Shown: piece after piece, positions 4,129 through 39,172 of the stretch
How positions within the stretch are numbered: the first letter of the stretch is position 1
How the letters are laid out: each line of letters starts with the position of its first letter
Translations under genes and position numbers: made by a program
The notes under the pieces: generated by a model
The model's input: the letters and a program-made list of their open reading frames with translations, nothing else
Database searches by the model: none
Told to the model about the DNA's origin: nothing
DNA from: Bryobacterales bacterium
GTDB taxonomy: Bacteria > Acidobacteriota > Terriglobia > Bryobacterales > Bryobacteraceae
Direction of reading: 5' to 3'
NCBI GenBank assembly: GCA_003162425.1
Contig: PMOK01000168.1
Span: 997 to 64,996 of the forward strand
Length of the DNA stretch: 64,000 bases

Positions 4129-4131
4129 GCT

Positions 4132-12774: not shown

Positions 12775-12888
12775 TACCGGCCCCCACAGGTCACCGCCGA
12801 GCGGAACCAGGACGTCAATATGCCATATTCCGGGAACGTCGTTTTTCATTCTCAATCTGCCGACTGGGGTAAAATCGTTCGACACTCT

Positions 12889-15546
12889 ATGTCTCTGGCC
12901 CCCGGAGCCCACTTGGGACCCTATGAGATTCTTGCGCCCATCGGCGCAGGTGGTATGGGCGAGGTGTTTCGGGCTCGGGATACCAAGCTGGGCCGAAACG
13001 TCGCGCTGAAAGTGCTGCCCGAAGTCTTTGCCCACGATGCCGATCGGATGGCGCGCTTCGAGCGTGAAGCGCAGGTGCTGGCGTCGCTCAACCATTCCAA
13101 TATCGCGGCGATTTACGGACTGGAAGAATCGGACGGTATTCGCGCCCTGGTGATGGAACTGGTGGAAGGGCCGACGCTGGCGGAGCGGATCGGAGGGCGG
13201 CCCATGCCGCTGGAAGAAGCGCTGCCGATTGCAAAACAGATTGCGGAAGCGCTGGAGTACGCCCACGAAAAGGGGATCATCCACCGCGATCTGAAACCGG
13301 CGAACGTGAAACTGACCGTGGACGGCCACGTCAAAGTCCTGGACTTCGGGCTGGCGAAGGCGCTCGACCCACCGGCACAGGCGGCGGGCAATCCGTCCAT
13401 CTCACCAACCTTGACGGTGGAAGGAACGCGGGCGGGTGTGATTCTTGGCACCGCTGCCTACATGGCGCCGGAACAGGCTCGCGGTGCAGTGCTGGATAAG
13501 CGAGCCGATATCTGGGCTTTCGGCGTGGTGCTGTACGAGATGCTGACGGGCCACCAGCCGTTCGCAGGCGCGACTGTATCGGATACACTCGCCGCGGTGC
13601 TGAAAACGGAACCGAATCTTACGCAAGTTCCGGTGCAAGCACAGAAGCTTCTGCAACGGTGCCTCGAAAAAGATCCGAAGCGTCGCCTGCGCGACATCGG
13701 GGAAACTCGTTTTTTGTTGGAAGACGCGCCACCGCAAGGTGTGCCCGCGCGCGGAAGCAGCCAGTGGAAGATCGCGGCTGGGGTGTTGGCGGTCATGGCC
13801 ACGCTGGCCTTGTGGATGGCATGGCGGGCAACGCGACCCGTCAGCCAACCCCTGATCAGGCTGTCCGTGGAGCTGCCGGAGTTTGCTCTCCCACCAGAGT
13901 TGTCCCCAGGCGCCAGCGTCATCTTGTCACCGGACGGAAGCCGCATCGTGTATACGGGACACGCCACGGATCGTACTTCCCGGCTGTACACGCGCAAGTT
14001 CGACCAGGAGCAGGCTGTGCCGCTGGCCGGGACCGAAGACGCCTACGGTCCGTTCTTCTCACCGGACGGGCAAGCTGTCGGGTTTTTCGCGGGCGGGAAG
14101 CTGAAGAAGACTTCCGTCGACAGGGGTGGAGTTGTGGTGTTGTGCGATGCATCACAGGGCATCGGCGGGAGCTGGGGTGAGGACGGCAATATCATCGCGG
14201 CGCTAAATGGTTTTGACGGAATTCTCTCGCGAATACCTTCGGGTGGCGGCACGGTCGAGCCGGTGACGGAATTAAAGCCAGAGAGGAAGGAATACAAGCG
14301 CTGGCCGCAGGTGTTACCCGGAGCGCAGGTAGTGCTGTTTACAGCGATGAACATCGGTGGAGGGGCCACCATCGAGGCGCAGTCGCTGCGGACAGGCGAG
14401 CGGAAAATCCTCATGCGTGGAGGCTCCTACGGACGTTACGTGCCGACTGGGCATCTGCTGTACTTGCACCAGGGGACGCTGTATGCAGCGTCGATGGATG
14501 TGAAGCGCCTGGAGCTGACCGGACCGGCCGTGCCGGTGGTCGAAGAGGTGTTGAGCAGTGCGTCTTACGGATTCGCCCAGGCGGATTTCTCGCGGAGCGG
14601 AACGCTAGTGTACGTGCGAGGGAAACCAGCGAGGCAAACACTGGTGTGGCTGGACAGTACCGGCCATACGCAAACGCTTCGTGCTACGGCAACGGAATAT
14701 AACGGAACCGTTCGTTTTTCACCGGATGGCAAGCGGCTGGCAGTGAGTGTTACGGAAGGCGGCAATGGGAACGTGTGGGTGTACGAGTGGGAGCGGGATA
14801 CGTTCACCCGTCTGACCTTCACGCGGGCCTTTGAAGGTTTCCCGGTGTGGAGTCCTGACGGTAAGCACATGGCCTTCCTCTCGGACCGGCATGGAGAAGG
14901 TCTGCCGAATTTGTACTGGATACGGGCGGATGGCGCGGGGGAAGCGGTAAGGCTCACCCAAAGCAAGAACTTTCAGGTCCCGTTTTCGTTCTCGCCGGAT
15001 GGCAAGCGGCTGGCCTTTGCCGAACTGGATCGGCAGACGAATGGCGCCTTGTGGACGCTGCCTCTGGGAGAGATGGAAAGCGACCACCCGAAGCCAGGCA
15101 AGCCCGAGCCTTTTCTCGTGGCGCCGTTTAGTGAGCTTGGGCCAATGATCTCACCTGACGGCCGCTGGCTGGCATACCAGTCGAACCAGTCGGGACGCTA
15201 TGAGGTTTACGTACGGCCTTTTCTCAGACAGGGAGGGCAGTGGCAGATCTCGACAGGAGGTGGGGATTGGCCCGTCTGGTCGAAGAAGGGACCGGAATTG
15301 TTCTACCGGAGCAGCGAGGGCATGATGATAGCGAGCTACACGACGAACGGCGAAGCATTTGTGGCGAGCAAACCGCGGCTATGGGCCGCGAAGAAGGATC
15401 TTGGGGATTACTTCGATCTCGCGCCGGACGGAAAGCGATTCGCTCTGTTGCAGCCAGAAGCAGCGGAGCAGAAGGGTCCGCAGCACGTCACATTTCTGCT
15501 GAACTTCTTCGACGAACTACGCCGTCGCGCACCTGTTGGGAAATAA
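12889..15546 (+). CDS. Ser/Thr protein kinase with a TM segment and a PD40/TolB-like beta-propeller
   Basis: [39 protein letters not shown]; [20 protein letters not shown]. Repeated (F/L)SPDG(S/Q/K/R) blades follow. ATG 12889 is preferred over the track start at 12820. Confidence 0.95.
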
Positions 15547-22218: not shown

Positions 22219-22786
22219 GCGGCACTTCTCGGCTCAATTCCCGATGGAGCCACACCTTAGCCAGTTTCCAGTCGCGCAATACGGTATCTGGCGAGACTTT
22301 TAATACTTCCGCGGTTTCCTCGGCCGTGAGTCCGCCAAAGAAGCGTAGCTCAATGACTTGGCTCTTTCTAGGATCGATGGCGGCCAAGGCGTTCAGGGCA
22401 TCATCCAAAGCCACTAAGTCTGGATCTGTTCGCTGGAAAATATCAGGGCTTTTCTCCAACGATAGAGGGCGCACGCCCACGCCTCGCTTCAAGTAATTCC
22501 GGGAACGGGCGAAATCCACCAGGATGCGGCGCATTAGCTGCGCGGAGACAGCAAAAAAGTGAGCGCGGTTCTGCTACCGTACGCGGCTGCAATCCACCAG
22601 ACGCAAGTAGGCCTCGTTCACGAGTGCCGTAGTTTGCAGGGTATGCCCGGGGTTTTGGCCGGCCATGTAGTGGCGAGCCAACCGCTGAAGTTCCTTATGA
22701 ACCAACGGCATCAGTTCTTCCAGCGCCGAGGACTGGCCTTGGCTCCAGGCCAGAAGCAGCTCCGTAACCTGCTGTGGCAAAGGCAT
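22208..22786 (-). pseudogene. TIGR02999-type ECF sigma factor interrupted by one in-frame TAG
   Basis: Track ORFs 22574..22825 and 22208..22534 are in the same frame: ..[46 protein letters not shown]... The TAG (22574-22576) sits where this family has Trp in (V/E)WQNRAHFF, so TGG became TAG. Confidence 0.8.
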
Positions 22787-23552: not shown

Positions 23553-23768
23553 GATTGACATCTAAAACGATCCATCGCGGCTCTTCTGACTAGGCGACCG
23601 GGCGCTGCGTCCCTATGGGTCTGCGGATCAAAGGTCTTGCCTGGCCGGCCTAGCGTTTACCTATCGGGCAGCCGGGCCGTTTTCTGGGAATTGGCCTGAT
23701 AAACGCGCAACTCGTCCCATTTCCTGATCTGACGAAAATTGGTCAGCGGATTATGGAGACCGCTGACA

Positions 23769-24761
23769 ATGAAAAACAAGACTGTGAAACAGAAGCGCCC
23801 CTCTCCCAAAAGAGTGCTTCGCCTCCCCGACCTCGATTACGCGAAAACGGTCGTCCTGAACACACTCAGTTCCGCAGATTCGCGGCGATCCTATCGATTT
23901 GCCATTGACGATTTCGTCACATGGTACTGCTCGGAACCGAGGCTCGCTTTCAGTAAGACCGTTGTTCTCCGATACAGACTGGAACTGGAGGGCGGTCATT
24001 TGGCCCCGTCCACGATCAACCTGCGCCTCGCTGCGGTTCGCCGCCTCGCGTACGAAGCAGCCGACACCGGGCTCCTCAGCCCCGATTTGGCCGCTGGTAT
24101 TCGCCGGGTCAAAGGAGCAAAAAAGGTGGGCGTCCGACTCGGAAATTGGCTCACCGCAGATCAGGCCAAAGCGCTCCTGCGCGCCCCGGACATCGAAAAA
24201 GTTCGGGGGAAGCGCGACCGCGCAATGCTGGCGGTCTTGCTTGGTTGCGGATTGCGCCGGTCTGAAATTGTCCACCTGAGCGTCGATCATCTTCAGAAGA
24301 GGGAAGATCACTGGGCCATTGTTGACCTGATCGGGAAGGGCGGCCACATACGGACCGTTCCGGTTCCGGAATGGGTCAAAGCGTCGGTTGACGATTGGGT
24401 GACGGTAGCAAACATCGGCACAGGGAGACTGTTCCGTTGTGTTAACAAGACCGGCTCAGTCTGGGGCAGCGGGATCACAGAGAAAGTCGTGTGGAGTGTC
24501 GTGAAAGAGTTCGCCGCTACTGTAGGCATCGATAAGTTAGCCCCTCATGATCTTCGACGGACTTGCGCCCGGCTGTGCCATTCTGTTGGCGGAGAGCTTG
24601 AGCAGATTCAGTTTCTGCTCGGACATGTGAGTGTGCAGACCACTGAGCGTTACCTTGGCTGCAAACAGCGTCTGCGGGGAGCTGTGAACGATTGCATCGG
24701 AATCGAGCCTGAGATGCAAACGAAGCTGCAGATCGCTGGAACTGCCGTTAGTTCAGGCTGA
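23769..24761 (+). CDS. tyrosine recombinase / phage-type integrase
   Basis: RDRAMLAVLLGCGLRRSE (Arg I), HDLRRTCA (H-x-x-R), LLGHVSVQTTERY (catalytic Tyr). ATG 23769 is preferred over the TTG at 23739. A 7-bp stem TCAGCGG/CCGCTGA lies just upstream. Confidence 0.9.
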   Translation: MKNKTVKQKRPSPKRVLRLPDLDYAKTVVLNTLSSADSRRSYRFAIDDFVTWYCSEPRLAFSKTVVLRYRLELEGGHLAPSTINLRLAAVRRLAYEAADTGLLSPDLAAGIRRVKGAKKVGVRLGNWLTADQAKALLRAPDIEKVRGKRDRAMLAVLLGCGLRRSEIVHLSVDHLQKREDHWAIVDLIGKGGHIRTVPVPEWVKASVDDWVTVANIGTGRLFRCVNKTGSVWGSGITEKVVWSVVKEFAATVGIDKLAPHDLRRTCARLCHSVGGELEQIQFLLGHVSVQTTERYLGCKQRLRGAVNDCIGIEPEMQTKLQIAGTAVSSG

Positions 24762-24851: not shown

Positions 24852-26090
24852 TCAATCCGGTTCGAGTAAGCCTGCCTTGAACAACGGACGCCCGGCCACG
24901 GCGGTGTGGAAGGCGTAGGCGGTCAAGGCGAGGATCACAACCAAAACGAAGACGGTTGTGCTCGCGTACCAGGTGGAGAAATCCGCAATCGGAAAGCCGC
25001 CCAGAGTGTTGCCCACAAAAAGGCATACGATCGTCGGCAGCAATCCTCCAAACCGGAGCAGGGTTGCAGCAAACAGCGTAAAGAATGAGATCTCGCCGAC
25101 CGCCCTGATCACAGGGTGAACGTCGCCGAATGCCGCCGAAGCCCCGAGCAGGACGAAAGCGGCCGCCGCGAGCCATTGCCCCCGCAGCAGCACGCGGAGC
25201 AACATAAGGACGAAAGTGAGCAACATTCCAAAAAGGAACGCACTGACCATCTCAGTTAGCAAACTGTCCGCCAGGCCCCGTGCATCCAGGGACGAAAGTA
25301 GTCCAGCGTTCGTGACGGGGCGATACTGCCCCAGAGCCAGCCGTCCACCTGAGTTCAGGAGCGCAAGTCCGATGCCCAAAGCCACACCGAAAAGGAGGTG
25401 TCCGCCCACCAACGGATCGCGAAATCCGCCACTGAGCACGCGGCTCCAGGTGATCATGCTCTGCGGCCAGCGCCTTCTCACATAAGGCTCGAACGCCAGG
25501 TAAAGCGCCCATATGGTTACCGTAGGGATCGCGGCGTCTAGCGCACCCGAAAGAAATACGCCGGCTTCGCTCAGCGCGGCAACAGGGTGGGTAGTCAATA
25601 GATGACTCAGCCAGGCTCCGCCGAAGACGAAGGCTGCCGCCCGGTTCGCTCCGCGGAAGTCGCCTCGTTTCGCCCGGAAGTTGCGCCAGGCTAGAAAAGC
25701 ACCCAGTGCGAGCACCACCATGACGACCACCAGTGGGCCAGGCGGGACGCCCGAGGACTGCGCCATTCGTTCGGGCTTGGACCAGGGCCCGATGACCCGG
25801 AAGAACACCGGCTTCCCGCGCCAGGACGCAGCTTCGATCCGCATCGGGACCTCGGTAGCGCTCGCGTATGATCCTGTCCATGATGCTCGCGCATCGAAGG
25901 GGGTGAGCGAAACCCACTGCGGCTCCGCCGAAGCGAAGCGCGTCATATCCAGGCCAGCCGCTGTGAATAAAACCTTCCAGTCAAAGGGAGCGGTCAGCGA
26001 AAGGTTGTCCTCTACTTGCGGCGGCACAGCGTCGAGTTGAAGCAACCGGCCTTGCGGATCCAGACTGAGCCCAATCATCCCGGAGACCAT
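24852..26090 (-). pseudogene. 5'-truncated gene: periplasmic-like segment plus a polytopic membrane domain
   Basis: 412 aa with about 8 hydrophobic helices. It begins abruptly (VSGMIGLSLDPQGRLLQL..) exactly where the repeat at 26096 starts. It resembles C-terminal halves of acidobacterial membrane kinases (recollection only). Confidence 0.55.
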
Positions 26091-26469
26091 GGGCGGACCG
26101 GTTCTCTACCGCGGGAAACAGGTCTACATCCAGGGTGAGCCGCTATTCGACATCGAGTATTCGGACCAACTTCTGATCCGCCTCCTAGAGGCCTTTAATC
26201 CAGAAAAGTATGGTCGACGCGTCGAGCAGATCAACCTGATGGACATCGATCCGGACAAGCTGACGCCAGCGCAGCTCGATAGGATCGCGGAGCACCTGAT
26301 CCAGAAGGCTTTAACTGGCAAACCTGAAGCTATGGTAGCCGAAGCACGGCGCCGGCTAGAAGCTGGGGAGACCGTAACAGTTGAGGCGCTGGCGGAGGAG
26401 ATGACGGAGGAGCCTGGGCACACTGGTGGTTCTCGAGAAGGGCAAGCGACCACCGGTGTGGTGCCATGA
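26089..26469 (+). pseudogene. 5'-truncated phage/ICE-type gene (terminase small-subunit-like), copy 1
   Basis: PVLYRGKQVYIQGEPLFDIEYSDQLLIRLLEAFNPEKYGRRVEQ... The pattern ..YSD.LLI.LL.A..PEKY.. recalls small-terminase/HTH proteins of prophages. The Met at 26089 is fortuitous, at the junction. Confidence 0.5.
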
Positions 26470-26555
26470 GTGATTGAGACAGCCTCAGCCGAGGCCCGCA
26501 AACAGCTCGAAGCTGGCCGCCGTTGCTATCGACGCCGAGTCGCCCGCGGTTGAAA
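26096..26555 (+). repeat. direct repeat, left copy, flanking the NRPS cassette
   Basis: Aligns with 35165-35637. The first ~165 bp differ at 6 positions by eye, and similarity continues past the ORF stop (..CGCAAACAGCTCGAAGCT..). Confidence 0.85.
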
Positions 26556-27219
26556 TAGGATCAACCTAGCGCGCAGGCAGCCGCCATGCGGTCACCGAAC
26601 TCCGAGTGCGCCACAGTGGCAGAAGAAGGCGACCGCGTACTCATCCGCGGCGAGCACGGCGGCACCGACGCGCCCGAAAACATGTAGTGGCAGACGCGCG
26701 AGGCCGCGAAAGCGAAGGATCGCGTGGAGTAACGGCCTATAAGCGCTACAATCTGACAGAAATGGACTGGCTCCGCTCAGTACTCCTTGCCGCACGAATG
26801 AGGACCCAGCACTTCACAGAACCCGCAACGCTTCCCGAACCACAGCACAGCCTCGAAGAGCACTGGGAACCCGACCAGGTTGTGACGAGCGAGCCCCGCG
26901 CCGCAGGCCGCGCCCGATCAGACAGCACACAGGCTAGCACCCTGATCGTCGGAGGAAACGCCGCCAGCTTCCTGCAATGCCATAGCAACAATCCGTCGCT
27001 ACTCTCAAGCGAGCGCGGAAGCCCAGCGGACCCAAGCTTCTGGCTTACCGTAAAAGAAGGCTCGCCGTCCTCATTTAAGCGACAGAGCTACGAATGGCGC
27101 CAACTTCGCCACCAGCGACCGGAAGCGTCCAGCGCAGGAAGCCGGACGTCTTCGAGCTGTTGTTTCGCTTGAACTTGCAACACAACCGTCTCGATCGGGT
27201 TGAACCGTTGCATTCCTCA

Positions 27220-30200
27220 TCATCGCTTCGGCGAAGGCGCGTTTGCACCGGAGCCTCTCTTTTCAACATCCTGCGATTCGTCTAGGTACCGACTCAGTTT
27301 TGTCGCCAGAATTCCAACAGCGGGCTCAAAGAACACGCCTGTGTGGTCTCCCGGAATCTGGTGAACCTCCAGGCCGTCCTCTACTAGTTCACGCCAGCCC
27401 AATTGGATTTGCCAATAAGCGCCTGAGGGACGCCAGGAGGACTGGAACAGCACGACGCGGGCGGGGTAGCGGTGAGGTCGATAGGCACTGGCTGCAGAGT
27501 ACAGGATCTGATCTGCGTCCTGCGATCCGCTTTTGCTTAGGGGAGTCCCAACGTCGCTGGACAAGTGGTGAACCAGCCGCTTGCCCCGGCCGATGAGAGC
27601 ACGCAATCGGGACTTCAAATGGGTGAGAACCTTACTCACTCCGTCTTGGCGCAGATTTGTGATATGGAACGCGACTCTCTCGAGCCCCACTCTCATTCGA
27701 GCCATGACCGAGAGCTTCCAGAAATACGACCAATTCCGAGTGTCGATCAAGGCCAGGAGAGCCACCTGCTGCCCGCCACAAATGAGCTGTCTGGCCGTTT
27801 CGTACGCCAGGAGTCCGCTGAGGCACCAGCCTCCTAAATAGTACGGACCCTCGGGCTGCACTTCGCGCACTGCTCTCACCACACAAGCGGCGATATCTTC
27901 CAGCGTAGAGGGGACCGGCCCGTGCATTGAATCTAAGCCGCGAAGATCGATACCCAAGAGCGGCTGGTCAGAACCTAAGCGATCCGCGAGAGGCAGAAAA
28001 GCGGGGCCGCCTCCCAGGCAGAACAAGGGTGGCCGGGAACCAGCGGGCTGAATTGGAATCACTCGAAGAAGCTGGGCCGCGGAGTCCCCGGTTCGCATCG
28101 CGGTCGCCAGTTTTTCCACCGTGGGTGCCTGGAAGATGGTAGCCATCGACAGTTTCTGTCCGAAATCTCGTTCCAAGCGAGCAAGCATTTTTGCCACCAG
28201 CAGGGAATGGCCGCCCAGCTCGAAGAAATTATCCTGGGGCCCAACGCGGCTCACGCCGAGGAGCGTTCCCCAGATTTTCCCCAGCTGAAACTCCAAGGCA
28301 TCCACCGGAACCAAATCCTCGACTGAAGTGAAATCGTCTCGCTGGGGAGCTGGCAGTGCGCGGCGGTCAATCTTTCCGTTCGGCAATAGCGGTAACGATT
28401 TTAGAATCACGAACTGGGACGGCAGCATGAACTCCGGCAGCTTCCGTTCGAGGAAGCTTCGCAGCCCCTCGTGCATAACCGCTTTTCCTGGATGAGGCAC
28501 GATGTACGCCACCAACCGCTTCTCCTGCTGGTTGTCCTCCCAGGCGGACGCGGCAACGGCCAGGACCGAGGGGTGCGCCGCCAGCATCGCCTCGATCTCA
28601 CCCAGTTCGATCCGATAGCCGCGAATCTTCACCTGGAAGTCTTTTCTTCCCAGGAACTCGATGCTGCCGTTGGCGAGCCGCCGTCCCATGTCTCCGGTTC
28701 GATAGATCCTCTTGTTTCCGCCCTGCGGGTCCGGGAGAAAGGCCGCCCTGGTCAATTCCGGTTTCTGCCAATAACCGAGGGCGAGATGCGCGCTTCGGAT
28801 ACCGATCTCTCCATATAGGTCGGTTGGTTGGGCGGATTCATCCAGCAGCAGAACCTCCGTTTCCTCGACCGGATAGCCGACCGGCACCGACGCCCGGTCA
28901 ATCGGTGTTTCCTGATCGATAAAATACTGCAGCGTTACGGTTGATTCAGTTGGTCCGAATCCGTTGACAAACAGGCAGCCTTCGGAAAAATGCTTCCGGT
29001 ACAGATCCACATCCCTTTTGTCGGCGGCTTCTCCTCCCAAGACAATCAAACGAACGCTGGAGAAATCCTCCCCACCCCGCAAGGAACCCGCAAAATAGCG
29101 ATATATGGTCGGGGTGGAATGATAGATAGTAATCCGCTGGGCCGACAACCAGCCGGGCAGACTGCCGATTCCCTCGGCCCTCAGGTCGATTGGACATAGC
29201 CCCGCTCCATTGAGTAATGCGCCGAAGACGTCCATTACAGCCGCGTCAAAGCAGTAGGAGGAAATCAAGCTCAGCCGGTCGCTGGCGTCGATGTGCAGTG
29301 CGTTGGTGTAGCTGCTGATAAAGTGAAGCACATTCCGATGATTCTGCGCGACGCCTTTGGGCCGCCCGGTGGAACCGGAGGTGTAAAGAATGTACGCTGC
29401 CGCGTCCGGGGAAATGGAGAGCCCAAGGTCGTGTTCGGGAATGGAGGTCTGCTTCTGATCGACGTTCAGTACAGGAGTCTTTTTGTTTGACAGTTCATTG
29501 GCTAGAGACAGATTGGCCGCATTGGTCAGGATTGCGGCCGCCTGGCAATCATCCAAGACGTAGGAGATCCTCTCCCGCGGATAATGTGGGTCAATCGGAA
29601 CGTAGGTCTTACCCGCGTTCAGCACGCCCAGCATGCCGGCAATCATGGGAGCGTCCTGCTCAAACAGCAGAGCAATGTTCTCTGGTGCTGGCCCGCGCAA
29701 ATCCAAGAGAGCGCGTGCGACCTGGTTGGCTTTCCGTTTGAGAATCTCGTAGGTCCACTCACACCGTCTGGAGCGGACGGCAACGCGATCCGGATGCCGC
29801 CTCGCTTGCTGCTCGAAGCGCTGGAATATGGACTGCTCAATCTGGTCCCGTTCGAATCGCACAAAGGAGCTGTGGGGACAGACTGCATTGCGGCGGGTGG
29901 AAAGCTGCCGCCGCTCATCGCCGGAGAGGAGGGGCAAGGTCGAAATCGGCCGGTCCGGGTAGTCCACGATCCCGTGGAGCAACCTCTCCAGGTGCTCACG
30001 CATACGATCGATGGTCGCCGCTTCAAACAGGTCGGTGTTGTAGCGGAAGCGGCCGACCAAGCCTTCCGGCCGGTCGTCCAATGCGAGGTAGAGATCGGTT
30101 CTCGCCATGCCCGTATCGACGTCGATCTGCGTCAGTTGCCAGCCGGGCGAAAGATCCGGGAGCTGAGGCTCGAGAACGAACATCGCTTGAAACAGCGGGT

Positions 30201-31365
30201 GGCGGCCGGGGTCCCGTTCGGTTCCGAGTTCCTGCACCAGGCGATACACCGGAACATCGCCATGCGATAAAGCGCCTAACGTCACTTCTCGAACGCGCCG
30301 GACCAGTTCCCGGAATGTCGGGTTCGCCGAAAGGTCGGTGCGCAGCACCAAGGTGTTCAGAAAGAAACCCAGGAGACTTTCTACTTGCGGCCGTTTTCGG
30401 ATGGAATTGACCGTGGCGACGACGATGTCGGTTTGCCCGGTGTAGCGATAGAGCAAGGCCTGAAAGGCAGCCAGCAGTGTCATGAAGAGCGTGACGCCTT
30501 CGCGTTGGCTGAGCGCCTTCAAGGCTTCGGTCAAGCTCCCTGAAAAAGCGAAAGTCGGTTGCGCGCCGCGGAAACTGAGTAGCGGGGGACGGGGTCGGTC
30601 CACCGGCAACTCCAATGTCGCAGGCGCACCGGACAGTTGTTGCTTCCAGTAAGCGAGTTCCTCGGAAGCATCGTCTGGGAAAACCTCGCGTTGCCAATGA
30701 ACAAAGTCAGCGTAGCGGATGGGCAACTCGGGAAGCGACGGCGGTTTTCCGGTGGAACAGGCTTCGTACAAGCTGGCCAGCTCCGGGAGGAATACATTGT
30801 TGAGGGAGATGCCATCGAAGATGATGTGATGCAGGGTGAAGAATAAGCGGTGTTGCTCGTCCTCGAAGCGCACCAGCATGGCTCTGAGTAGCGGCCCCCG
30901 TTCCAGATCGAAAGGCCGACGCGAGTCTTCCGTAGCCAGCCTCAGAGCTTCTGCTTCTCGCTTGACCTCAGGAAGCCCGCGCAGGTCGACCACAGGCAGG
31001 TCGAGCGGGAACGGAGGCTGGACGATCTGGACCGGCTGCCCGTGCAAGCAGTGGAACGTGGTTCGCCAAGCCTCGTGCCGGCGAATGATCGCACTCAAGC
31101 TCTGCTCCAACGCCTTGACATCCAGCGGACCAGAGCGGTGTATGGTGACTGGCTCGTTGTAAATGGGGAGACCGGGGTCCATTTGAGCGTGCAGCCATAT
31201 TTGCTGTTGTCCATAGGAAAGTGGAGCGACGGGACCGGCTGGGCCGCGGGAAATCGGAGGCAGGCCGGCAGGTCTTGGCGGCAGATCTCCGCGGAGATAT
31301 TTTTGGAGCAGGAGGCGCTTCGAATCTGAAAGATGGGCCGCTTCAGCCATGGAACGCGGCACCAC
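27220..31365 (-). CDS. NRPS module C-A-T-TE
   Basis: C: HHIIFDGIS. A: LYTSGSTGRPKGV, FDAAVMD, NGFGPTE, YRTGDMGR, GRKDFQVKIRGYRIELGEIE, LPNGKIDRRAL. T: FFELGGHSLL. TE: GGWCLSG..LIDT..PGDH. An alternative ATG at 31350 gives ATGgcTGA overlap with the P450 stop. Confidence 0.95.
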   Translation of the reverse strand: MVPRSMAEAAHLSDSKRLLLQKYLRGDLPPRPAGLPPISRGPAGPVAPLSYGQQQIWLHAQMDPGLPIYNEPVTIHRSGPLDVKALEQSLSAIIRRHEAWRTTFHCLHGQPVQIVQPPFPLDLPVVDLRGLPEVKREAEALRLATEDSRRPFDLERGPLLRAMLVRFEDEQHRLFFTLHHIIFDGISLNNVFLPELASLYEACSTGKPPSLPELPIRYADFVHWQREVFPDDASEELAYWKQQLSGAPATLELPVDRPRPPLLSFRGAQPTFAFSGSLTEALKALSQREGVTLFMTLLAAFQALLYRYTGQTDIVVATVNSIRKRPQVESLLGFFLNTLVLRTDLSANPTFRELVRRVREVTLGALSHGDVPVYRLVQELGTERDPGRHPLFQAMFVLEPQLPDLSPGWQLTQIDVDTGMARTDLYLALDDRPEGLVGRFRYNTDLFEAATIDRMREHLERLLHGIVDYPDRPISTLPLLSGDERRQLSTRRNAVCPHSSFVRFERDQIEQSIFQRFEQQARRHPDRVAVRSRRCEWTYEILKRKANQVARALLDLRGPAPENIALLFEQDAPMIAGMLGVLNAGKTYVPIDPHYPRERISYVLDDCQAAAILTNAANLSLANELSNKKTPVLNVDQKQTSIPEHDLGLSISPDAAAYILYTSGSTGRPKGVAQNHRNVLHFISSYTNALHIDASDRLSLISSYCFDAAVMDVFGALLNGAGLCPIDLRAEGIGSLPGWLSAQRITIYHSTPTIYRYFAGSLRGGEDFSSVRLIVLGGEAADKRDVDLYRKHFSEGCLFVNGFGPTESTVTLQYFIDQETPIDRASVPVGYPVEETEVLLLDESAQPTDLYGEIGIRSAHLALGYWQKPELTRAAFLPDPQGGNKRIYRTGDMGRRLANGSIEFLGRKDFQVKIRGYRIELGEIEAMLAAHPSVLAVAASAWEDNQQEKRLVAYIVPHPGKAVMHEGLRSFLERKLPEFMLPSQFVILKSLPLLPNGKIDRRALPAPQRDDFTSVEDLVPVDALEFQLGKIWGTLLGVSRVGPQDNFFELGGHSLLVAKMLARLERDFGQKLSMATIFQAPTVEKLATAMRTGDSAAQLLRVIPIQPAGSRPPLFCLGGGPAFLPLADRLGSDQPLLGIDLRGLDSMHGPVPSTLEDIAACVVRAVREVQPEGPYYLGGWCLSGLLAYETARQLICGGQQVALLALIDTRNWSYFWKLSVMARMRVGLERVAFHITNLRQDGVSKVLTHLKSRLRALIGRGKRLVHHLSSDVGTPLSKSGSQDADQILYSAASAYRPHRYPARVVLFQSSWRPSGAYWQIQLGWRELVEDGLEVHQIPGDHTGVFFEPAVGILATKLSRYLDESQDVEKRGSGANAPSPKR

Positions 31366-32629
31366 GCGCAGCCGATTCAGGGTCTGCTATCCGGACGGGC
31401 AGGGCTGTCAAGCCGCGCAATCCCAGGTTTTGCCGCCAAACCAGAGGCCCGGGTTCCAGAGTAAGATTCGGAAGCCGGCGCAGCAACGTTTCGAAAGCAA
31501 TTTGAGCTTCCATGCGAGCCAAGGGAGCGCCGAAGCAAAAATGAGCGGCCCAACCGAATGCCACGTGCCGGTTGTCCACGCGCGTGATGTCGAGCCGGTC
31601 CGGGTCGGCAAATCGCTCCGGATCGCGATTGGCGGCGCCCATCACGGCAATCACGGCCTGGCGCTTGCGGATCAGTTTTCCGCCCAGTTCCACGTCGGCC
31701 GGCGCCATGCGGGTGGTGTGCTGGCTGGGGGTCTCATAGCGCAGCAGCTCTTCGATCGCGGAAGGAATCCAGGAGAGGTCAGCCCGCAGTGTTTCCAATT
31801 GATCGGGGTTGCGCAGCAAGCTGAGCATGCCGTTTCCAATCAGGTTGGTTGTGGTTTCCTGGCCCCCCACCATGGTCACGATACAATTGGCGATCACCTC
31901 TTCTTCGCTCAACCGGTCGCCTCCGATCTCGGCCGTACTCAGCGCATGGATGAGGCCCTCCCGCGGATGGTCGCGCTGTTCGCGGATGGCCGCGCGAAAA
32001 TAGGCGGTCATTTCCTCGACGCTTTTCAGTACGCGCGGAATGCGGTCCGGGTTGTATTGGAAGTTTCCGAGCATCTCAGCGAAATCCGCGGACCAGGCTT
32101 TGAGTTGAAGATGGTCGGCAACCGGCACACCCAGCATTCCGGCCGTGACGATGGCGGGCAACGGGCTGGCAAAGTCTCGCAGCAAATCCATACTGCTCCC
32201 GGCCGCGACCGCATCCAGCAGGCTATCGGCGATCTCCTGGATGTGAGAACGCAACATGGCCACCCGGCGGGGCGTGAAGGCCGCGGAGGCGAGGGCGCGC
32301 AGCCGAGTATGTGCCGGCGCGTCCATGAAAAGCATCTGGCTCACCATCATTTGAGCGATGGGGTTCAACGCCGCGAGTCCGATCGCCGTCAGATGCTCGG
32401 GCGTGGGTGTTACATCGGCGGAGAAGTCGTGCAGCACTTGGATCACGTCACAATAACGGGTGACCACCCAGGCGTGCAGGAAGATATCCCAATGCACCGG
32501 GTCCTCGGTCCGGAGTCGGTGATAAAGAGGATAGGGGTTGGCAAGAACCTCAGGGTCGAGCAGATGGTAGAGGCTCAAAGAAGGACCGGGCTGGGTGCCT
32601 TGGTGGGCGGGAACTGCGCTTGTCGTCAC
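31343..32629 (-). CDS. cytochrome P450
   Basis: I-helix MVGGQETTTN, ExxR EELLRYETP, heme loop FGWAAHFCFGAPLAR. Its start lies 4 nt after the A-T gene stop. Confidence 0.95.
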   Translation of the reverse strand: MTTSAVPAHQGTQPGPSLSLYHLLDPEVLANPYPLYHRLRTEDPVHWDIFLHAWVVTRYCDVIQVLHDFSADVTPTPEHLTAIGLAALNPIAQMMVSQMLFMDAPAHTRLRALASAAFTPRRVAMLRSHIQEIADSLLDAVAAGSSMDLLRDFASPLPAIVTAGMLGVPVADHLQLKAWSADFAEMLGNFQYNPDRIPRVLKSVEEMTAYFRAAIREQRDHPREGLIHALSTAEIGGDRLSEEEVIANCIVTMVGGQETTTNLIGNGMLSLLRNPDQLETLRADLSWIPSAIEELLRYETPSQHTTRMAPADVELGGKLIRKRQAVIAVMGAANRDPERFADPDRLDITRVDNRHVAFGWAAHFCFGAPLARMEAQIAFETLLRRLPNLTLEPGPLVWRQNLGLRGLTALPVRIADPESAARGAAFHG

Positions 32630-32632
32630 GTG

Positions 32633-34558
32633 TCATTCTCTCTCTGCTAAAGCGTTCAGGGCCTCTTCTTCGCTCATGGCTTCCAGCCCGGCGATCATCA
32701 ACCGTTCGATCAAGGCGGACATGGCGCTCACAGTCGGATGCTCGAACAGGTTGCGCAAAGAAAGTTCCACTCCGAAGACACTGCGTACTCGCGCGATCAC
32801 TTGTGCCCCAAGCAACGAGTGGCCGCCCATTTGGAAAAAGTTGTCCTCAACGCCCACTTGTTCCAGATTCAGCAGACTCTTCAGGATTCCCGACAAGTGC
32901 TGTTCCACCGCCGTGCGAGGAGCGACGAAGATCGGCGCGCTCTCGGGATCCGGAGCCGGTAGTGCGGCGAGATCCAATTTACCGTTCGGGGTGAGCGGAA
33001 GAGCGGGAAGAAACACAAAGAACGCCGGCAGCATGTAATCGGGCAGTTTCGTTTTAAGGAACTCCCGAAGAAGCTGGCAGGAGGGCTGGGAGTCCGGAGC
33101 CGTTACAACATACGCGATGAGTTGCTGGTCACCCGGTGTGTCTTCGCGCGCCACGACCAGGCTCGATTCGATCATCGGGTGAATATTCAGCAAAGCCGAG
33201 ATTTCGTCTGGTTCGATACGGTAGCCCCGGATCTTGATCTGCCGATCCGCTCGCCCCAGAAAAGCGACCTGGCCATCCGGCAAAAACCGCCCCAGGTCGC
33301 CGGTTCGATACATGCGGGCGCCCGGTGTTGCGCTGAACGGATCAGGAATGAATCTTTCCGCGGTAAGCTCTGGGTCATTCCGATATCCGCGCGCCAGGCT
33401 CGCCCCGCCGATGTACAGTTCGCCAGCTTGGCCGGGCGCGACCGGTTGTTGATGGTTGTCCAGAACGTATACTTCGGTGTTGGCGATGGGCCAACCAATT
33501 GGTGGCAGCGCGTCGCAACATTCTTCCGGCTTCAAGGCGCCGGAGGTCGCCACCACCGTGCATTCGGTAGGTCCGTAATTGTTCACTACCTCGAACGGCA
33601 GGCCGGGCGGCGGATAGCGGTGGAGCCGATCGCCACCAGTGAGCATCGCGCGCAACGCCGTGCCGCGTGGCCATTCCAGCCTCATCACGCGCTCGGCCAT
33701 AGGCGTGGGAACAAAGCTGATCGTGATCTCTTGGGCCACTAGCCAGTCCCGCAGAAGCTCCGGGGATTGGCGCGTTTCGTCATCGGCAAGATGGACGCTG
33801 GCTCCAGCGGTCAGGTATGGCCACAACTCCCAGACCGCCGCGTCGAAGCTCAGACCGGCGATCTGGCTGGCGCGGTCGGCTGATGTCACTTGGAAGGCAT
33901 GCTGGTGCCACGACACCAGGTTGGACAGGCTGGCATGTGTGATCTCGACTCCTTTCGGGGAGCCAGTGGAGCCGGAGGTGTAAATCACGTAAGCCAGTTG
34001 TTGAGTCAGAGCTTCATCGACCGGAGAGCTCGCATCCTGGCGCGCAATGCTTCGACTTCCGGCGTCCAGTTCCACTACCTGGCAGCCGCCGGAGGGAAAG
34101 CGCTGAGCCAAGTCCGCATCTGTCACCAGTACCGGAGCGTGGGCATCACGCAACATGAAGGCTAAGCGGTCCGACGGATAAGCAGGGTCCAATGGAAGAT
34201 AGGCGGCGCCAGCCTTTAGGATGCCTAAGGCGGCAACCGGCAGTCCGATGGAACGGTGCAAGCAGAGGCCAACGACCACCTCCGGCCCGACACCGAGCAT
34301 GCATAGTCGGTCGGCCACCTGGTCGGACCGAACCTCAAGCTCCCCATAGCTCAACGCCTCTCCGTTTGCGACTAGCGCGACCTGCTCAGGCCGGGCGGCC
34401 GCGTGAGCCGCCACGAGCTGAGGCACACAAGCACCCGTTTGGTTTCCGAGTGACACCCGGTTGCCGTCGTTCGTAGACACCGAACTGCAGGGAACGGCTA
34501 GGCCCCGAAACATAGCTTGCTGCTGGTTGAACCGGTATTGTAACCCGAGACCCGGCAA
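32633..34558 (-). CDS. NRPS loading didomain A-T (predicted Leu)
   Basis: IYTSGSTGSPKGV, FDAAVWE, NNYGPTE, YRTGDLGR, GRADRQIKIRGYRIEPDEI, TPNGKLD, FFQMGGHSLL. Stachelhaus residues read by alignment to GrsA give DAWFLGNVVK. ATG at 34513 is a likelier start than the TTG at 34558. Confidence 0.95.
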   Translation of the reverse strand: MPGLGLQYRFNQQQAMFRGLAVPCSSVSTNDGNRVSLGNQTGACVPQLVAAHAAARPEQVALVANGEALSYGELEVRSDQVADRLCMLGVGPEVVVGLCLHRSIGLPVAALGILKAGAAYLPLDPAYPSDRLAFMLRDAHAPVLVTDADLAQRFPSGGCQVVELDAGSRSIARQDASSPVDEALTQQLAYVIYTSGSTGSPKGVEITHASLSNLVSWHQHAFQVTSADRASQIAGLSFDAAVWELWPYLTAGASVHLADDETRQSPELLRDWLVAQEITISFVPTPMAERVMRLEWPRGTALRAMLTGGDRLHRYPPPGLPFEVVNNYGPTECTVVATSGALKPEECCDALPPIGWPIANTEVYVLDNHQQPVAPGQAGELYIGGASLARGYRNDPELTAERFIPDPFSATPGARMYRTGDLGRFLPDGQVAFLGRADRQIKIRGYRIEPDEISALLNIHPMIESSLVVAREDTPGDQQLIAYVVTAPDSQPSCQLLREFLKTKLPDYMLPAFFVFLPALPLTPNGKLDLAALPAPDPESAPIFVAPRTAVEQHLSGILKSLLNLEQVGVEDNFFQMGGHSLLGAQVIARVRSVFGVELSLRNLFEHPTVSAMSALIERLMIAGLEAMSEEEALNALAERE

Positions 34559-35037
34559 AATACTATAGGTACTAGCAGTTCAATTGCAGTTGTGAAACTT
34601 CCGGCATCAGGAGATTGCCACTTGGCTCTGATCATTAGCCATCCGAAAGAGCTGCAAAAGCAAGATTCTGGGGACATATGACAAAAGTTGTCGAGTTCCG
34701 GCGAACATGTCCTCTACGGAGTAGTACTGATAGTACATAATTTCGTCGAAAGAGTCTGGGCACATAATAAGCCTTCCGATTCCCTCTCGCAGTGAGACTT
34801 CTGGGAGCCGAAACAACTAACTTACGGCCCTGCTGGCGCCTGGGGTCACCGACGATCTGAGAACCGTCTGGGCGAATGCCGATGGTTCAGTAACGTTGAT
34901 CGGTGCAGGGGCCCAACCGTCCTCTTCGGGGTGATTATTGGTCGGCGCGGAAGTTTTGAATTGCTCATACGGCAACGCGCCGGTTGCATAGCGTGCCAGC
35001 AGAGCAGCCAGAGTTGGGTTCCGCGCCGCCGCCTTGA

Positions 35038-35502
35038 CGATCCGGTCAACCCGACTGGCTGCGAAAAGACGCAACGTACCCCGCGCGATTTGCTCAAGCA
35101 CGAGAGCGAGCTACCCAGACCCTTGAAGACGAGGCTGTTCGTCGGGCTGTGGAGGGAGTCCGCAGACCGGTTCTCTACCGCGGGAAACAGGTCTACATCC
35201 AGGGTAAGCCGCTATTTGACATCGAGTATTCGGACCAACTTCTGATCCGCCTACTAGAGGCCTTTAATCCTGAAAAGTATGGTCGACGCGTCGAGCAGAT
35301 CAACCTGATGGATATCGATCCGGATAAGCTCACGCCCGAAGTACTCGATAAACTGGCTGATCATCTGATTCAGAAGGCGCTGAAAGAGAAGGGGTTGAAT
35401 AGCCCCGAGATGGTAGCTGAAGTCGGCCGCCGTCTGGAGGCCGGGGAGACCGTGACCGTTGAGGCGCTGGCGCAGGAGCAGACGGATGAGCCTGGGAAAT
35501 GA
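35038..35502 (+). pseudogene. 5'-truncated terminase small-subunit-like gene, copy 2 (longer than copy 1)
   Basis: The frame is open from 35038 with no start: ..ARFAQARERATQTLEDEAVRRAVEGVRRPVLYRGKQVYIQGKPLFDIEYSDQLLIRLLEAFNPEKYGRR... The track ORF starts at GTG 35149. Confidence 0.55.
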
Positions 35503-35637
35503 GCACGCTGGTGATTCTCGAGAGGGCAAGCGGCGACGGGTGTGGTGCCGCGAGTGTTGACACGGCTTGCCGAGGCTCGCAAACAGCTCGAAGCTCGCGC
35601 CGTTGCAATGACGCCGAGGCGCCCGCAGTTGCGAAAA
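35165..35637 (+). repeat. direct repeat, right copy, flanking the NRPS cassette
   Basis: See 26096-26555. Same orientation, 9069 bp apart. Confidence 0.85.
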
Positions 35638-35846
35638 GCTCCAGGAGAGTGATTCGCCGGCCGGATTCAGAGGACTGGTTGGTCACGGTCAAACCACGCT
35701 CGAAGCGGTGCTTCGCTCTCTGTTCACCGGGCGAGCAACTCGCTCAGGCTTGGTTGCTCGTTCCGCTCACGTTGCATGGGGTCCTTCGTTATGCGCCGGA
35801 TGAAAACTTGCGCAAAATGATGCTCCACAGCCTTCACAGACGCCAC

Positions 35847-37041: not shown

Positions 37042-37276
37042 CTGCGCCGCTGGCAGCCTCGGCGGGGTGGGCAAAGGCCCACGAAACGTCCGCCTTGGAC
37101 TGGCGCTCAGTTCTACGGAATGGGTTTGCACAAGTTAATGGGCACCGTGAAATACCCGGCGCAAGCCACACCCAGAAGATCATCGTTAAGCCGTGTGCGG
37201 GAAAACTGCACGCACGGTTTGAAAGGGGTTCTTAGAAACGGGCCGGTGTAAGCCGGTACCGCGCTAAAATCTACCA

Positions 37277-37420
37277 ATGAAAGTTGATCTCACCGAAGAC
37301 GAGATCCGGCTCCTTATGGAGGCGGTCGAGCATTTCGACGCCTACCTGCATTCGCAGCGCCGGGAGAGCGATGAGATCAAGGCTCTGCTGAGGATGCTGC
37401 AAAAGCTATTGAAGAAGTAG
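37277..37420 (+). CDS. 47-aa helical micro-protein (below the track cutoff)
   Basis: MKVDLTEDEIRLLMEAVEHFDAYLHSQRRESDEIKALLRMLQKLLKK*. Clean ORF, no obvious SD. Confidence 0.3.
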   Translation: MKVDLTEDEIRLLMEAVEHFDAYLHSQRRESDEIKALLRMLQKLLKK

Positions 37421-37566: not shown

Positions 37567-37845
37567 TCATTTCCCCGGCTCCTGCTCCACCGCACGCATG
37601 CAATCCTCGAACGTCGGGTTCTCGCCAGCTTCGATGAGCCGCTGCGCTTCTGCGACGGCTCGCTGATTTCCGCCTAAGGCCCTGCTGAGCAAGTGGTCTG
37701 CGATGACGTCGAGTTGGTCCGGCGTCATCTTGTCCGGATCGGTCTCCCACAGCAAGGCGCTGCGATCGACGAACATGCCGATCTCTTTCCCGATCAGCTC
37801 CTCACAGCGCGCCGCGGCCCCAACCCATTCGATTCGGCGCTCCAA
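37567..37845 (-). CDS. third, diverged and inverted paralogue of the terminase-like C-terminal module
   Basis: DPDKMTPDQLDVIADHLLSRALGGNQRAVAEAQRLIEAGE parallels DPDKLTPAQLDRIAEHLIQKALTGKPEAMVAEARRRLEAGE of copy 1. The N-terminus differs; TTG start. Confidence 0.45.
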   Translation of the reverse strand: MERRIEWVGAAARCEELIGKEIGMFVDRSALLWETDPDKMTPDQLDVIADHLLSRALGGNQRAVAEAQRLIEAGENPTFEDCMRAVEQEPGK

Positions 37846-38318
37846 GAACGGATTGCGAGTGAGGCTTTTTGGAAGGTCCCTGCTTTCCTGGCCCTGCCCG
37901 CCTTCGGATAACTCACGGTTGAACTACATTAAATAGCCCTTACCCTCGGGAGCGTCAAAAACGTGGAACGCCGAGTCTTCTGAAACTATTCGTTTATCTT
38001 CTTAACATGAACCCCTGCGTTATCCAAAGCTTCATGAAGCCTTCCCCGAAGAAAGCTTAGGCGCTAACGACAATTGACGCAGGAATGCTCGACGAAAATG
38101 ATCCACCCAAGAGCCTCCAGGCGCGGGAGTCGCGGTCCCTGACCGTGCCAGAGACGGACCCCCCTAGTCTGTCTTGGAGTCCGCTTCCCGAGACTATCTG
38201 GGTTGCGACGGAGGAATGAAGTGTTCTAACGTATTGATTCCGGCCGTTCCGATATGAAATCGACTTCCTGAGAGCCATCCTGGACTGCGGAGCCTGGTTT
38301 CCGACCGCCGGGTGAACT

Positions 38319-38435
38319 GTGCAGAAGCGCATGGACAGGCTGACCGCAGAGCGGAGAAGCTGGAACATGAGTCGCATCAAAGGGCGGGACACCGCACCGG
38401 AGAAGCGAGTCCGCTCCCTGCTGCACCGGCTCGGA
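38319..38435 (+). pseudogene. vsr: N-terminal fragment of very-short-patch repair endonuclease Vsr
   Basis: ERRSWNMSRIKGRDTAPEKRVRSLLHRLG matches the Vsr N-terminus (RS.NM..I..K.T.PE...R..L...G). Similarity ends at 38435. Confidence 0.6.
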
Positions 38436-38712
38436 TCTTTTTCAACTGCGGCATCTTGGCTTGCGACGCTTGCAGATAGATGGGCTCTACGTACAGGAAC
38501 GTATGTTCAATGGGCAGAACCAGCATTTGGCCGCGCAATACCTGGGAGCCTTGCTGATTCCACAGCGTGAGATCCTTCGAGATGTTCTGATCCTGGTTGA
38601 TGCGCGCTTCCACTTGCATGGGCCCGTAAATGATCTCCTGCTTCGATAGCAGCAGCACCACGTTGGTTCGGGTACCGTGACGGATATGCCGATCTGTGTC
38701 GACTCTTCCAGG
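38434..38712 (-). pseudogene. C-terminal fragment of a UPF0182-family membrane protein
   Basis: IYGPMQVEARINQDQNISKDLTLWNQQGSQVLRGQMLVLPIEHTFLYVEPIYLQA..MPQLKKI matches the conserved UPF0182 C-terminus. It abuts the vsr fragment tail to tail. Confidence 0.6.
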
Positions 38713-38822
38713 AGGTCAGAGGCGGACGGAGGGAGACAGATTTCCGCGCTCTCGCTGACCGGCTCAATCCGCTGTGGTAACCCTGCTGCCCGACACGAAG
38801 AATCCCGGTAAGATCGGCTGAT

Positions 38823-39029
38823 ATGGCGTCAGCGATATTCCAGCAGTACCGAGATCACTATGGCATCGGGGCATCCGACATGAGCGAAGGCTGCGGCAAT
38901 ATCTACGCCAACGATGGCACCCTCGTCGCAACGGTCTCGTACAACGGACGAGTCTGGCACCCACAGGGCGAATTGCTGCAAGAATCGATCACCGCGAGCG
39001 CCCCTGACGAGTGTGGCGACTGCAAATAG
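38823..39029 (+). CDS. small hypothetical protein
   Basis: 68-aa ORF (..YNGRVWHPQGELL..ECGDCK). No SD and no motif. Confidence 0.3.
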   Translation: MASAIFQQYRDHYGIGASDMSEGCGNIYANDGTLVATVSYNGRVWHPQGELLQESITASAPDECGDCK

Positions 39030-39172
39030 TGTCGACTTCCACCGCCACCGTACTGGCTCTCACCTTTAAGAGTCTTTTGTAGCCCGTCGGGCAATACGCC
39101 GATCCGCTAACTCTCTTCCTGAATGCAGCCCTCTCCCAATATGCCTTCATCCGCTCTGATTGGGCTTTCCGC

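Follow-up and report, generated by a model that had tools for sequence, protein, structure and literature searches.

Does a direct repeat on either side of an NRPS operon make that operon a mobile cassette, or may such a bracket arise without any role in mobility? The question is raised by a locus in the window, the whole 64,000-nucleotide stretch of Bryobacterales DNA analysed here, in which an A-T / P450 / C-A-T-TE operon lies between two similar sequences in the same orientation (Table 1).

The direct repeats and the operon between them

Comparison of the window against itself, as the original prediction had proposed, recovered the two same-strand repeats that it described (26093-26575 and 35162-35640), with a spacing of 9069 bp. 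The repeat search divided them into D1 (26093-26309 / 35162-35378; 217 nt, 90% identity, spacing 9069) and D2 (26332-26418 / 35410-35496; 87 nt, 83%), and the two copies showed 82% identity across 478 nt by blastn and 405 identities in 498 columns of a global alignment. Near-identity of the first ~165 bp had been noticed by eye, and the alignment gave 96.4% for that part (96-98% for the first 150 nt) versus ~82% overall, with exact runs of 41, 41 and 35 nt common to both copies. Also as anticipated, similarity extends ~100-135 nt beyond the stops, ending at ~26552-26575 in the left copy and at ~35631-35640 in the right one, and both copies are 5'-truncated, the right one retaining ~107 nt more (homology starts at ~35052 in the right copy and at 26097 in the left one). 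Genome-wide, neither copy has a better overall match than the other copy (458 bits).

The A, T, C and TE domains of the operon are encoded in intact, co-oriented genes. The same cassette is present in an independent metagenome contig, L081, at 88% amino acid identity, and the three-gene layout was also found in G003, G004, G007 and G012 (35-43% amino acid identity). To the left of the bracket, the variant contig L084 diverges at window position 24759, and the end of a penicillin-amidase gene replaces the integrase there. Three integrases are present, and the distance to a tRNA-Ser hotspot is 11 kb.

Table 1. Coordinates of the features discussed, in the window unless contig C258 is named
Feature	Position	Strand	Remarks
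Tyrosine recombinase, 340 aa	23739..24761	+	Pfam Phage_integrase, E 2e-24; left of the bracket
Ser/Thr-kinase membrane protein gene, 3' half (~415 codons)	24852..26096	-	ORF 24852-26090
Left predicted terS relic	26097..26469	+	~aa 87-196 of a ~197-aa small terminase; phrog_4044, tblastn to full-length G012 L040
Left relic non-coding tail	26470..26575	+	Modules T1 + T2; indels not multiples of 3
NRPS, C-A-T-TE, 1381 aa, intact	27220..31365	-	Pfam Condensation, AMP-binding, PP-binding, Thioesterase
Conserved cassette extent	27257..34586	-	89.6% nt identity to L081
Cytochrome P450, 428 aa, intact	31343..32629	-	Pfam p450, E 2e-28
Stand-alone A-T loading module, 641 aa, intact	32633..34558	-	Pfam AMP-binding, PP-binding
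FAD-dependent oxidoreductase gene fragment	34956..35057	-	Last ~34 codons; adjoins right relic
Right predicted terS relic	35052..35502	+	~aa 45-197; phrog_4044, tblastn to full-length copies
Right relic non-coding tail	35503..35640	+	T1 + T2
Third, inverted predicted relic	37567..37923	-	terS C-terminal module, different N-terminal subtype (..ELIGKEIGMFVDRS..)
tRNA 3' fragment (C258)	~10690-10740
int (C258)	10808-12103		Arm-DNA-bind_3 + Phage_integrase
terS (C258)	17076-17948		phrog_4044

The small-terminase family and its parent element

As judged from profile matches, both repeats are predicted 5'-truncated fragments of small-terminase (terS) genes, and hence pseudogenes, which agrees with the truncated phage-type genes of the original prediction and assigns them to the terS of a PICI/P4-like satellite family. 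The relics matched phrog_4044 with E 1.8e-5 (right) and E 1.2e-3 (left) at profile positions 90-147 only; full-length paralogues matched it over the HTH and oligomerisation core, with E 1.4e-27 (C258a) and 2e-15 (L046 of G012). Neither window copy is an intact ORF with the N-terminal DNA-binding part, the native start being absent from both: the right copy lacks ~45 residues, including the HTH part, and has no start codon before a GTG at 35149, and the left copy lacks ~86, the ATG at 26089 being fortuitous. The family is matched by 76 phage records, for example the annotated terS of RcRudolph, and its phage relatives include terS genes at genome ends, whereas its ~60-aa C-terminal module is lineage-specific and missing from the phage homologues. 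A scan of IMG/VR with one full-length terS query detected no relative. The third, diverged and inverted paralogue suspected at the right is real, with inverted arms (26236-26313 / 37675-37752) that are 72% complementary and 48% protein identity (E 2.4e-8); its nearest relative lies at 98.5 kb of C156 (92.5% nucleotide identity).

The non-coding tails were considered as a structured RNA or a fixed element terminus, and both ideas were rejected: the 3' truncation points differ between the tails, T2 is found where T1 is missing, an insert of ~340 nt is present in one copy, and the single candidate hairpin varies without compensation. An Rfam search of the tails gave no match. That the tail is the start of a downstream gene was rejected on the basis of indels that are not multiples of three.

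The family occupies 13 places in this genome by DNA and ~16 by protein, on 10 contigs, and its members comprise nine 3'-only copies, two 5'-only copies and one intact copy. Multiple copies, often in same-strand arrays, were also observed in G012 (12), G013 (10), G001 (8) and G004 (3), and of 41 genomes searched, 33 yielded no member of the family. Same-strand relic arrays are located on C201, C156, C258 and G001:C136. The relics showed no association with the other NRPS loci (C298, C340 and C223), and the only contigs with both relics and NRPS genes are C125 and C201, on the latter of which they are separated by 40 kb.

The parent elements were probably PICI/P4-like phage satellites, as suggested by the apparently intact copy on G000:C258, in which a tRNA 3' fragment is followed by int, a Zn_ribbon_DnaG primase, a primase/helicase and terS. 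As in such satellites, the integrase gene is adjacent to the tRNA site at one end, a primase/replicase module is present (Zn_ribbon_DnaG, E 4e-20, CHC2-primase; phrog_6444 primase; a 550-aa protein matching phrog_10537 and phrog_19930, DNA polymerase/primase), and terS is the last core gene of an element of ~7-8 kb in which no capsid, tail or lysis genes were seen, four ORFs having been searched against Pfam. For the interval from 10.8 to 18 kb, the ORF list and the Pfam searches of those four ORFs revealed no large structural ORFs, and the 300-aa ORF at 12334-13233 had no Pfam match. A second att site was not found, no 13-mer being common to the int-side end and the region after terS. No AlpA/regulator or capsid-morphogenesis homologue was identified among the larger ORFs of the C258 element. 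Unlike PICI/P4 satellites, the window copies are dead fragments rather than elements and the family terS carries the lineage-specific C-terminal module. PICIs have been described in Gram-negatives (PMC6092414). The host here belongs to Acidobacteriota, a phylum with 0 occurrences in the survey of SatelliteFinder families (PMC10085698).

Junctions, mosaicism and selection

The left copy had been predicted to start exactly where the membrane-protein gene is cut, and this was confirmed by two intact orthologues in relatives. The truncated gene has lost ~460 codons at its N-terminal end, with the zinc ribbon and the kinase domain, its full-length paralogues being members of a zinc-ribbon / Ser-Thr-kinase / membrane protein family of 875-940 aa, and the orthologues in G024 (875 aa) and G050, with 83-84% nucleotide identity, continue beyond the point equal to window position 26096, where homology stops. 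The microhomology at this junction is 0-2 nt. On the right, the relic adjoins an oxidoreductase fragment with 84% nucleotide identity to C54:21570-21671, whose parent 448-aa ORF matches FAD_binding_3, and the 5' junctions of the two relics are different illegitimate breakpoints against unrelated gene fragments. An empty-site genome was sought among the relatives and none was found; the flanks of the best kinase orthologue (G024) are not syntenic, G000 lacks all of its neighbours, and the G050 orthologue is on a 2.4-kb contig.

Only in the first 165 nt is each of the two copies the closest match of the other. The nearest relative of the left middle block is C156b, that of the left tail is C106 (T2 is closest to C106:12244-12327, 93%), and those of the right C-terminal block are the G012 copies. 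The dN/dS ratio between the copies was 0.155 over 108 codons, with a dS of 0.15 in block 1 versus 1.29 in block 2, and the copies diverged under purifying selection, as two once-functional genes, before they were truncated. The copies are mosaics with different nearest relatives, and the two relics come from two different elements and not from one duplication. Synonymous-site conservation in block 1 was also considered as a pac-site signal and rejected in favor of modular mosaicism, the nearest relative of block 2 being a different one. As the copies are mutual best overall matches in direct orientation, the pair may nevertheless have had some history in situ, for example gene conversion of the first 165 nt.

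Origin of the bracket and its meaning

We consider it probable, at about three chances in four, that each repeat is the dead 3' fragment of a different satellite terS gene and that the bracket is debris of a patchwork island rather than a mobility device. PICI/P4-like elements (int, CHC2 primase, primase-helicase, terS) would have spread through this Acidobacteriota lineage, recombining and decaying there, and a separate illegitimate deletion or rearrangement would have produced each relic in the order of events that we infer, joining terS codon ~87 to the middle of the kinase gene on the left and, on the right, terS codon ~45 to the final 34 codons of the FAD-oxidoreductase gene. The operon would owe its place between the relics to the recombination-prone patchwork of the island, the repeats having no part in delimiting or moving it. 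The locus resembles tandem or decayed integrative-element arrays in genomic islands, where successive integration and deletion leave relic att, int or gene fragments, in having several same-strand relics within a few kb, truncated flanking genes, three integrases and a nearby tRNA-Ser hotspot. It is unlike them in that a gene fragment, variable in where its 5' and 3' ends fall, is repeated here rather than a fixed att core and no tRNA fragments accompany the window relics.

The original prediction regarded the repeats as handles by which homologous recombination would delete or circularise the whole gene cluster, and in an extended form a recombinase such as the integrase at 23739-24761 would excise it, making the cluster a facultative, exchangeable module. 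The direct orientation, a block of 165 nt that is 96% identical and includes exact runs of 41 nt, the integrase 1.3 kb to the left and an 11.3-kb block that is 100% identical in L084 with a different left flank, which suggests recent exchange, are in agreement with such handles. However, the copies are only 82% identical overall, with indels, and the boundaries of these ~470-nt coding fragments do not coincide, which is not expected of attL/attR; no short att-like core and no tRNA fragment were found at the ends (9 T-arm matches near the relics versus 5 expected), the tRNA-Ser 3' end has no repeat within the window, and the integrase, which L084 does without, is outside the bracket. As in composite transposons and IS-bounded cassettes, direct repeats of a few hundred bp surround a self-contained operon, but neither repeat has a transposase domain in or beside it, terminal inverted repeats and target-site duplication are lacking, and the junction sequences differ.

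Moreover, the locus with both junctions was 99.9-100% identical in at least 15 independent assemblies drawn from JGI, ENA and Logan, the arrangement being fixed in the population. Of the 32 contigs found, 20 were compared, and none of these had a deletion or circle junction (consensus contigs hide rare variants). Of the predicted deletion or circularisation, what stands is that RecA-type recombination between the 41-nt exact blocks could in principle remove or circularise the 9 kb at low frequency, and nothing indicates that it does so. That the pair defines or mobilises the cassette was not supported, given the ~16 family places and the L081 cassette, which ends inside the bracket with flanks unrelated to the window from 30-40 nt outside the three genes (154-183 nt of flank only). 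The original prediction would be refuted by the same NRPS occurring without the repeats, and this was found in part, in L081 over those short flanks and in genus relatives that have the three-gene layout, at 35-43% amino acid identity, in genomes in which no terS relic was found. We therefore regard working handles as improbable.

An NRPS carried as accessory cargo of the left-relic satellite, with the right relic derived from a neighbouring, tandemly integrated element, appears to us just as improbable. PICI accessory genes are placed after the terS homologue (PMC10085698), the cassette begins ~650 nt past the left tail, and same-strand relic arrays do occur on four other contigs. Nevertheless, the cassette spans 7.3 kb and is transcribed toward terS, no other family member has an NRPS, no att site was found, and L081 has the cassette in another context.

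It is less likely still that the 3' terS relics keep a pac-like or recombinogenic cis site at which the terminase of a helper phage or satellite could begin to package the adjacent chromosome, or through which homologous satellites could swap cargo, a reading allowed by the 9-to-2 excess of 3' relics, the modular, recombining family and the 11.3-kb identical block with different flanks; if it were true, the relic-flanked NRPS cluster would be preferentially transduced or exchanged between strains. A single in-situ duplication around the cassette, for example through unequal crossing-over or replication slippage, decayed since, would account for adjacent copies that are mutual best overall matches, but a dN/dS of 0.15 with dS up to 1.29 is unlike the neutral decay of a duplicate, and nearest relatives of the blocks, 5' ends and fusion partners all differ, so that we give it very little weight. 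An assembly artefact, either a chimeric contig or the duplicated repeat that the original prediction had itself raised, might be feared in a 349-contig MAG with 4.8% contamination, but is practically discounted by copies that differ at 18% of positions and by an 18-24 kb arrangement, both junctions included, that independent assemblies from JGI, ENA and Logan reproduce at 99.9-100% identity, one of them with a 135-kb scaffold.

The direct repeats are thus no evidence of a mobile NRPS cassette and are unsuitable for delimiting the gene cluster or predicting its loss, the conserved NRPS unit being 27257-34586. As a by-product, the analysis points to PICI/P4-like integrative elements of soil Acidobacteriota that bear terS and form a family specific to the lineage; one copy (G000:C258) is apparently intact, and together with dozens of relics it maps recombination-prone islands in these large genomes. 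To our knowledge, Acidobacteriota have not been reported in large satellite surveys, and we know of almost no characterised phages of this phylum. If helper phages exist, the family would offer an entry point to phage-satellite biology in Acidobacteriota.

The repeated gene and its family

A repeat search of the window and pairwise alignment of the copies upheld the original prediction in its whole description of the repeat pair. The two copies lie in the same orientation at a spacing of 9069-9078 bp, and their similarity begins abruptly at 26096/35165, is near-perfect for ~165 nt, passes through a weakly conserved middle, and then returns to extend ~100-135 nt beyond both stop codons. In a global alignment, 405 of 498 columns are identical, with exact runs of 41, 41 and 35 nt. 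The third, inverted paralogue that had been described is also real.

Features of the window and of the related element on contig C258 of the same genome (G000)
Feature	Coordinates	Strand	Remarks
Left terS relic	26097..26469, tail to 26575	+	
Right terS relic	35052..35502, tail to 35640	+	
Third copy	37567-37923	inverted	
Direct repeat	26093-26309 / 35162-35378		217 nt, 90%
Second direct-repeat family	26332-26418 / 35410-35496		87 nt, 83%
Inverted match	26236-26313 / 37675-37752		
NRPS C-A-T-TE	27220-31365		intact
P450	31343-32629		intact
NRPS A-T	32633-34558		intact
Group II intron domain V/VI fragment	37186-37351	+	Rfam RF00029, 42.9 bits (gathering score 40); no intron-encoded protein nearby
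Gene fragments	38000-39100, 22208-22534		UPF0182 (94 aa), DUF2252 (100 aa), ECF sigma without N-terminus
Chimeric ORF	1075-1935	-	IS91-type Y2 transposase C-terminal part, then Trans_reg_C domain
Chimeric ORF	49934-50548	+	XFP_N and beta-lactamase matches overlap
~40-nt repeat	4129-4167(-), 4374-4417(+)		also G000 C106, C272, C53, C55; contig L081 1-67, just upstream of orthologous NRPS cassette
~60-nt motif	1-61		also G000 C218:50736, C258:25320, C23:3789; L081 116-184, directly upstream of A-T gene
C258 element	C258:10690-17948		outside window
tRNA 3' fragment			start of C258 element
P4-type integrase			C258 element; Arm-DNA-bind_3 + Phage_integrase
CHC2-zinc-finger primase			C258 element
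550-aa primase/helicase-type protein			C258 element; phrog_10537, phrog_19930
terS, full-length	C258:17076-17948		last gene of C258 element
Second terS, truncated	C258:19197-19529		1.2 kb downstream of C258 element

The stop-to-stop frames of both copies, which encode ..RPVLYRGKQVYIQGKPLFDIEYSDQLLIRLLEAFNPEKYGRR.., match only PHROG 4044 (small terminase subunit, terS), and weakly so (E 1.8e-5 and 1.2e-3, profile positions 90-147). Full-length members of the family, of ~190-200 aa, are found on C258 of G000 and on C329 and C137 of the relative G012; they match phrog_4044 with E values of 1.4e-27 and 2e-15, and in 76 phage genomes they match genes located at the ends, of which one carries a terS annotation. 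Relative to these proteins the right copy begins at ~residue 45 and the left at ~residue 87, and both are fragments of terS genes of probable phage-satellite origin, as expected from the earlier reading of truncated phage-type genes with the second copy longer. The C-terminal ~60 residues of the family (DPDKLTPE.LDK.ADHL..KAL...AE..RRLEAGE) also occur in proteins with another type of N-terminus, among them the third copy, and this module is swapped between different N-terminal cores (window 35330-35499 and 26261-26460; G012 full-length genes L040 and L046). No counterpart of the module was found in the phage terS homologues matched, and it may be a helper-specific TerL-binding tail.

Within G000, an 8.7-Mb MAG in 349 contigs where the window corresponds to C125:997-64996, the repeated gene gave 13 DNA matches, and tblastn with three full-length copies as queries placed the family at ~16 sites on ten contigs (one intact, three near full-length but damaged, nine 3'-only and two 5'-only), with same-strand arrays of three on C201, four on C156 and two on C258. 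Of 41 related genomes searched, four hold several copies of the protein (12 in G012, 10 in G013, 8 in G001 and 3 in G004) and three hold one copy each; it was not found in 33. The non-coding tail was found only in G000, G012 and G013 among 54 genus genomes; a fixed terminus was rejected for it, given that its 3' cut positions vary, the second module can stand by itself, and an insert of ~340 nt interrupts one copy.

Origin of the two copies

At the left junction (26096|26097) terS is fused to the middle of an opposite-strand gene whose paralogues are 875-940-aa zinc-ribbon/Ser-Thr-kinase/multi-pass membrane proteins. The orthologues of this gene in two genus relatives (83-84% nt) are uninterrupted across that point, in agreement with the earlier proposal that the left copy starts where a membrane-protein gene loses its N-terminus. 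At the right junction (~35052-35057) the fusion partner of terS is a remnant of an FAD-dependent oxidoreductase gene, its last 34 codons; this fragment is 84% identical to C54:21570-21671, and its parent ORF matches FAD_binding_3. Because microhomology amounts to a few nucleotides at most, both junctions are regarded as illegitimate events.

A single in-situ duplication is contradicted by these different 5' fusion partners, by the nearest relatives of each block and by the pattern of substitution. Left and right are mutual best matches solely over the first 165 nt (96.4% in segment-wise BLAST), a segment also 90-93% identical in the G013 and G004 copies. Beyond it, the left copy is nearer C156:78069 for 140 nt (84%) and nearer C106:12244 in its tail (93%), and the C-terminal block of the right copy is nearest the G012 copies. 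A neutral in-situ duplicate is expected to show a dN/dS near 1, whereas the value between left and right is 0.155 over 108 aligned codons, and dS rises from 0.15 over the first 55 codons to 1.29 over the others; therefore, most of the divergence arose when both genes were still functional and belonged to separate elements undergoing recombination. Taken together, these results indicate that the two copies are separate relics, two among many independent ones in a decayed, recombination-prone island.

Between 22 and 40 kb, the sequence around the pair is pieced together from broken genes and parts of mobile elements: the truncated ECF sigma and kinase genes, fragments of the FAD-oxidoreductase, UPF0182 and DUF2252 genes, a D5/D6 fragment of a group II intron, a tRNA-Ser and three integrases. 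The UPF0182, DUF2252 and ECF sigma fragments suggest widespread gene decay in the island. The ~40-nt repeat (TTCGGGGACCCGAACGAACAGGCCCACCCTGTAGTTAAC) was called MITE-like because it occurs as inverted pairs ~200 nt apart at several loci, and the ~60-nt conserved motif (..CTGCGAACT.TTGTTCCG.TCCGAAACTTGCAACACTGCCAC), recurring at several unrelated loci, could be a promoter or regulatory element common to them.

The locus in other assemblies and the NRPS cassette

Exact-protein look-ups retrieved 7 contigs for the NRPS, 11 for the kinase fragment and 21 for the 205-aa gene to the right of the repeats; these contigs represent 15 or more assemblies from JGI, ENA and Logan. The contigs compared with the window (L075-L090) are colinear with it across the two relics and their junctions, at 99.9-100% identity; one copy of the locus sits on a 135-kb scaffold, and the contigs from the 205-aa look-up keep the called-gene order of the window. 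The agreement of independent assemblies therefore rules out an assembly artefact, and with it the assembly duplication named as an alternative to the original prediction.

No deletion or circle form was present in the consensus sequence, which hides rare variants, of 20 contigs listed of 32; homologous recombination between the repeats is possible but would be inefficient at the observed divergence, and it is unobserved. The JGI contig L084 matches window 36090-24759 (11.3 kb) at 100% identity and then diverges: in place of the integrase at 23739-24761 it has a penicillin-amidase C-terminus (L084 11333-12399; PF01804, E 1e-62), from a gene absent from the G000 MAG. L084 is a strain-level structural variant, so the neighbourhood varies between strains, at a different breakpoint (24759).

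The three tightly packed genes of the NRPS cassette have the same layout in genus relatives at only 35-43% aa identity. G003, G007 and G010 carry this layout and no terS relic was found in their genomes; in G012 and G004, which also have it, relics are either on different contigs from the cassette or 117 kb from it. A protein search recovered an 88% identical NRPS orthologue on the 7.7-kb contig L081, whose match to the window (89.6% nt) is confined to 27257-34586; its outer 183 and 154 nt bear no relation to the sequence flanking the cassette in the window, and the MITE-like repeat lies in one of them. The boundaries of the conserved NRPS unit therefore fall 30-40 nt beyond the genes, clearly within the stretch between the repeats. 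The same NRPS without the repeats, named beforehand as evidence against the prediction, was thus found in part, as a cassette with unrelated sequence directly outside the conserved unit. The idea that the repeats define or mobilise the NRPS was not supported: the relics are two of many, the cassette is a conserved unit inside them, and nothing ties the two functionally.

A probable satellite element with an intact terS

The intact terS of G000 closes a compact element on C258 that is apparently intact. Its core genes are arranged as in the PICI/P4-like phage satellites that PMC10085698 defines; no regulator or capsid-morphogenesis gene was identified in it. The repeat pair itself is ordinary genome archaeology, and the PICI/P4-like satellite family in Acidobacteriota, a by-product of its analysis, is a modest bonus.
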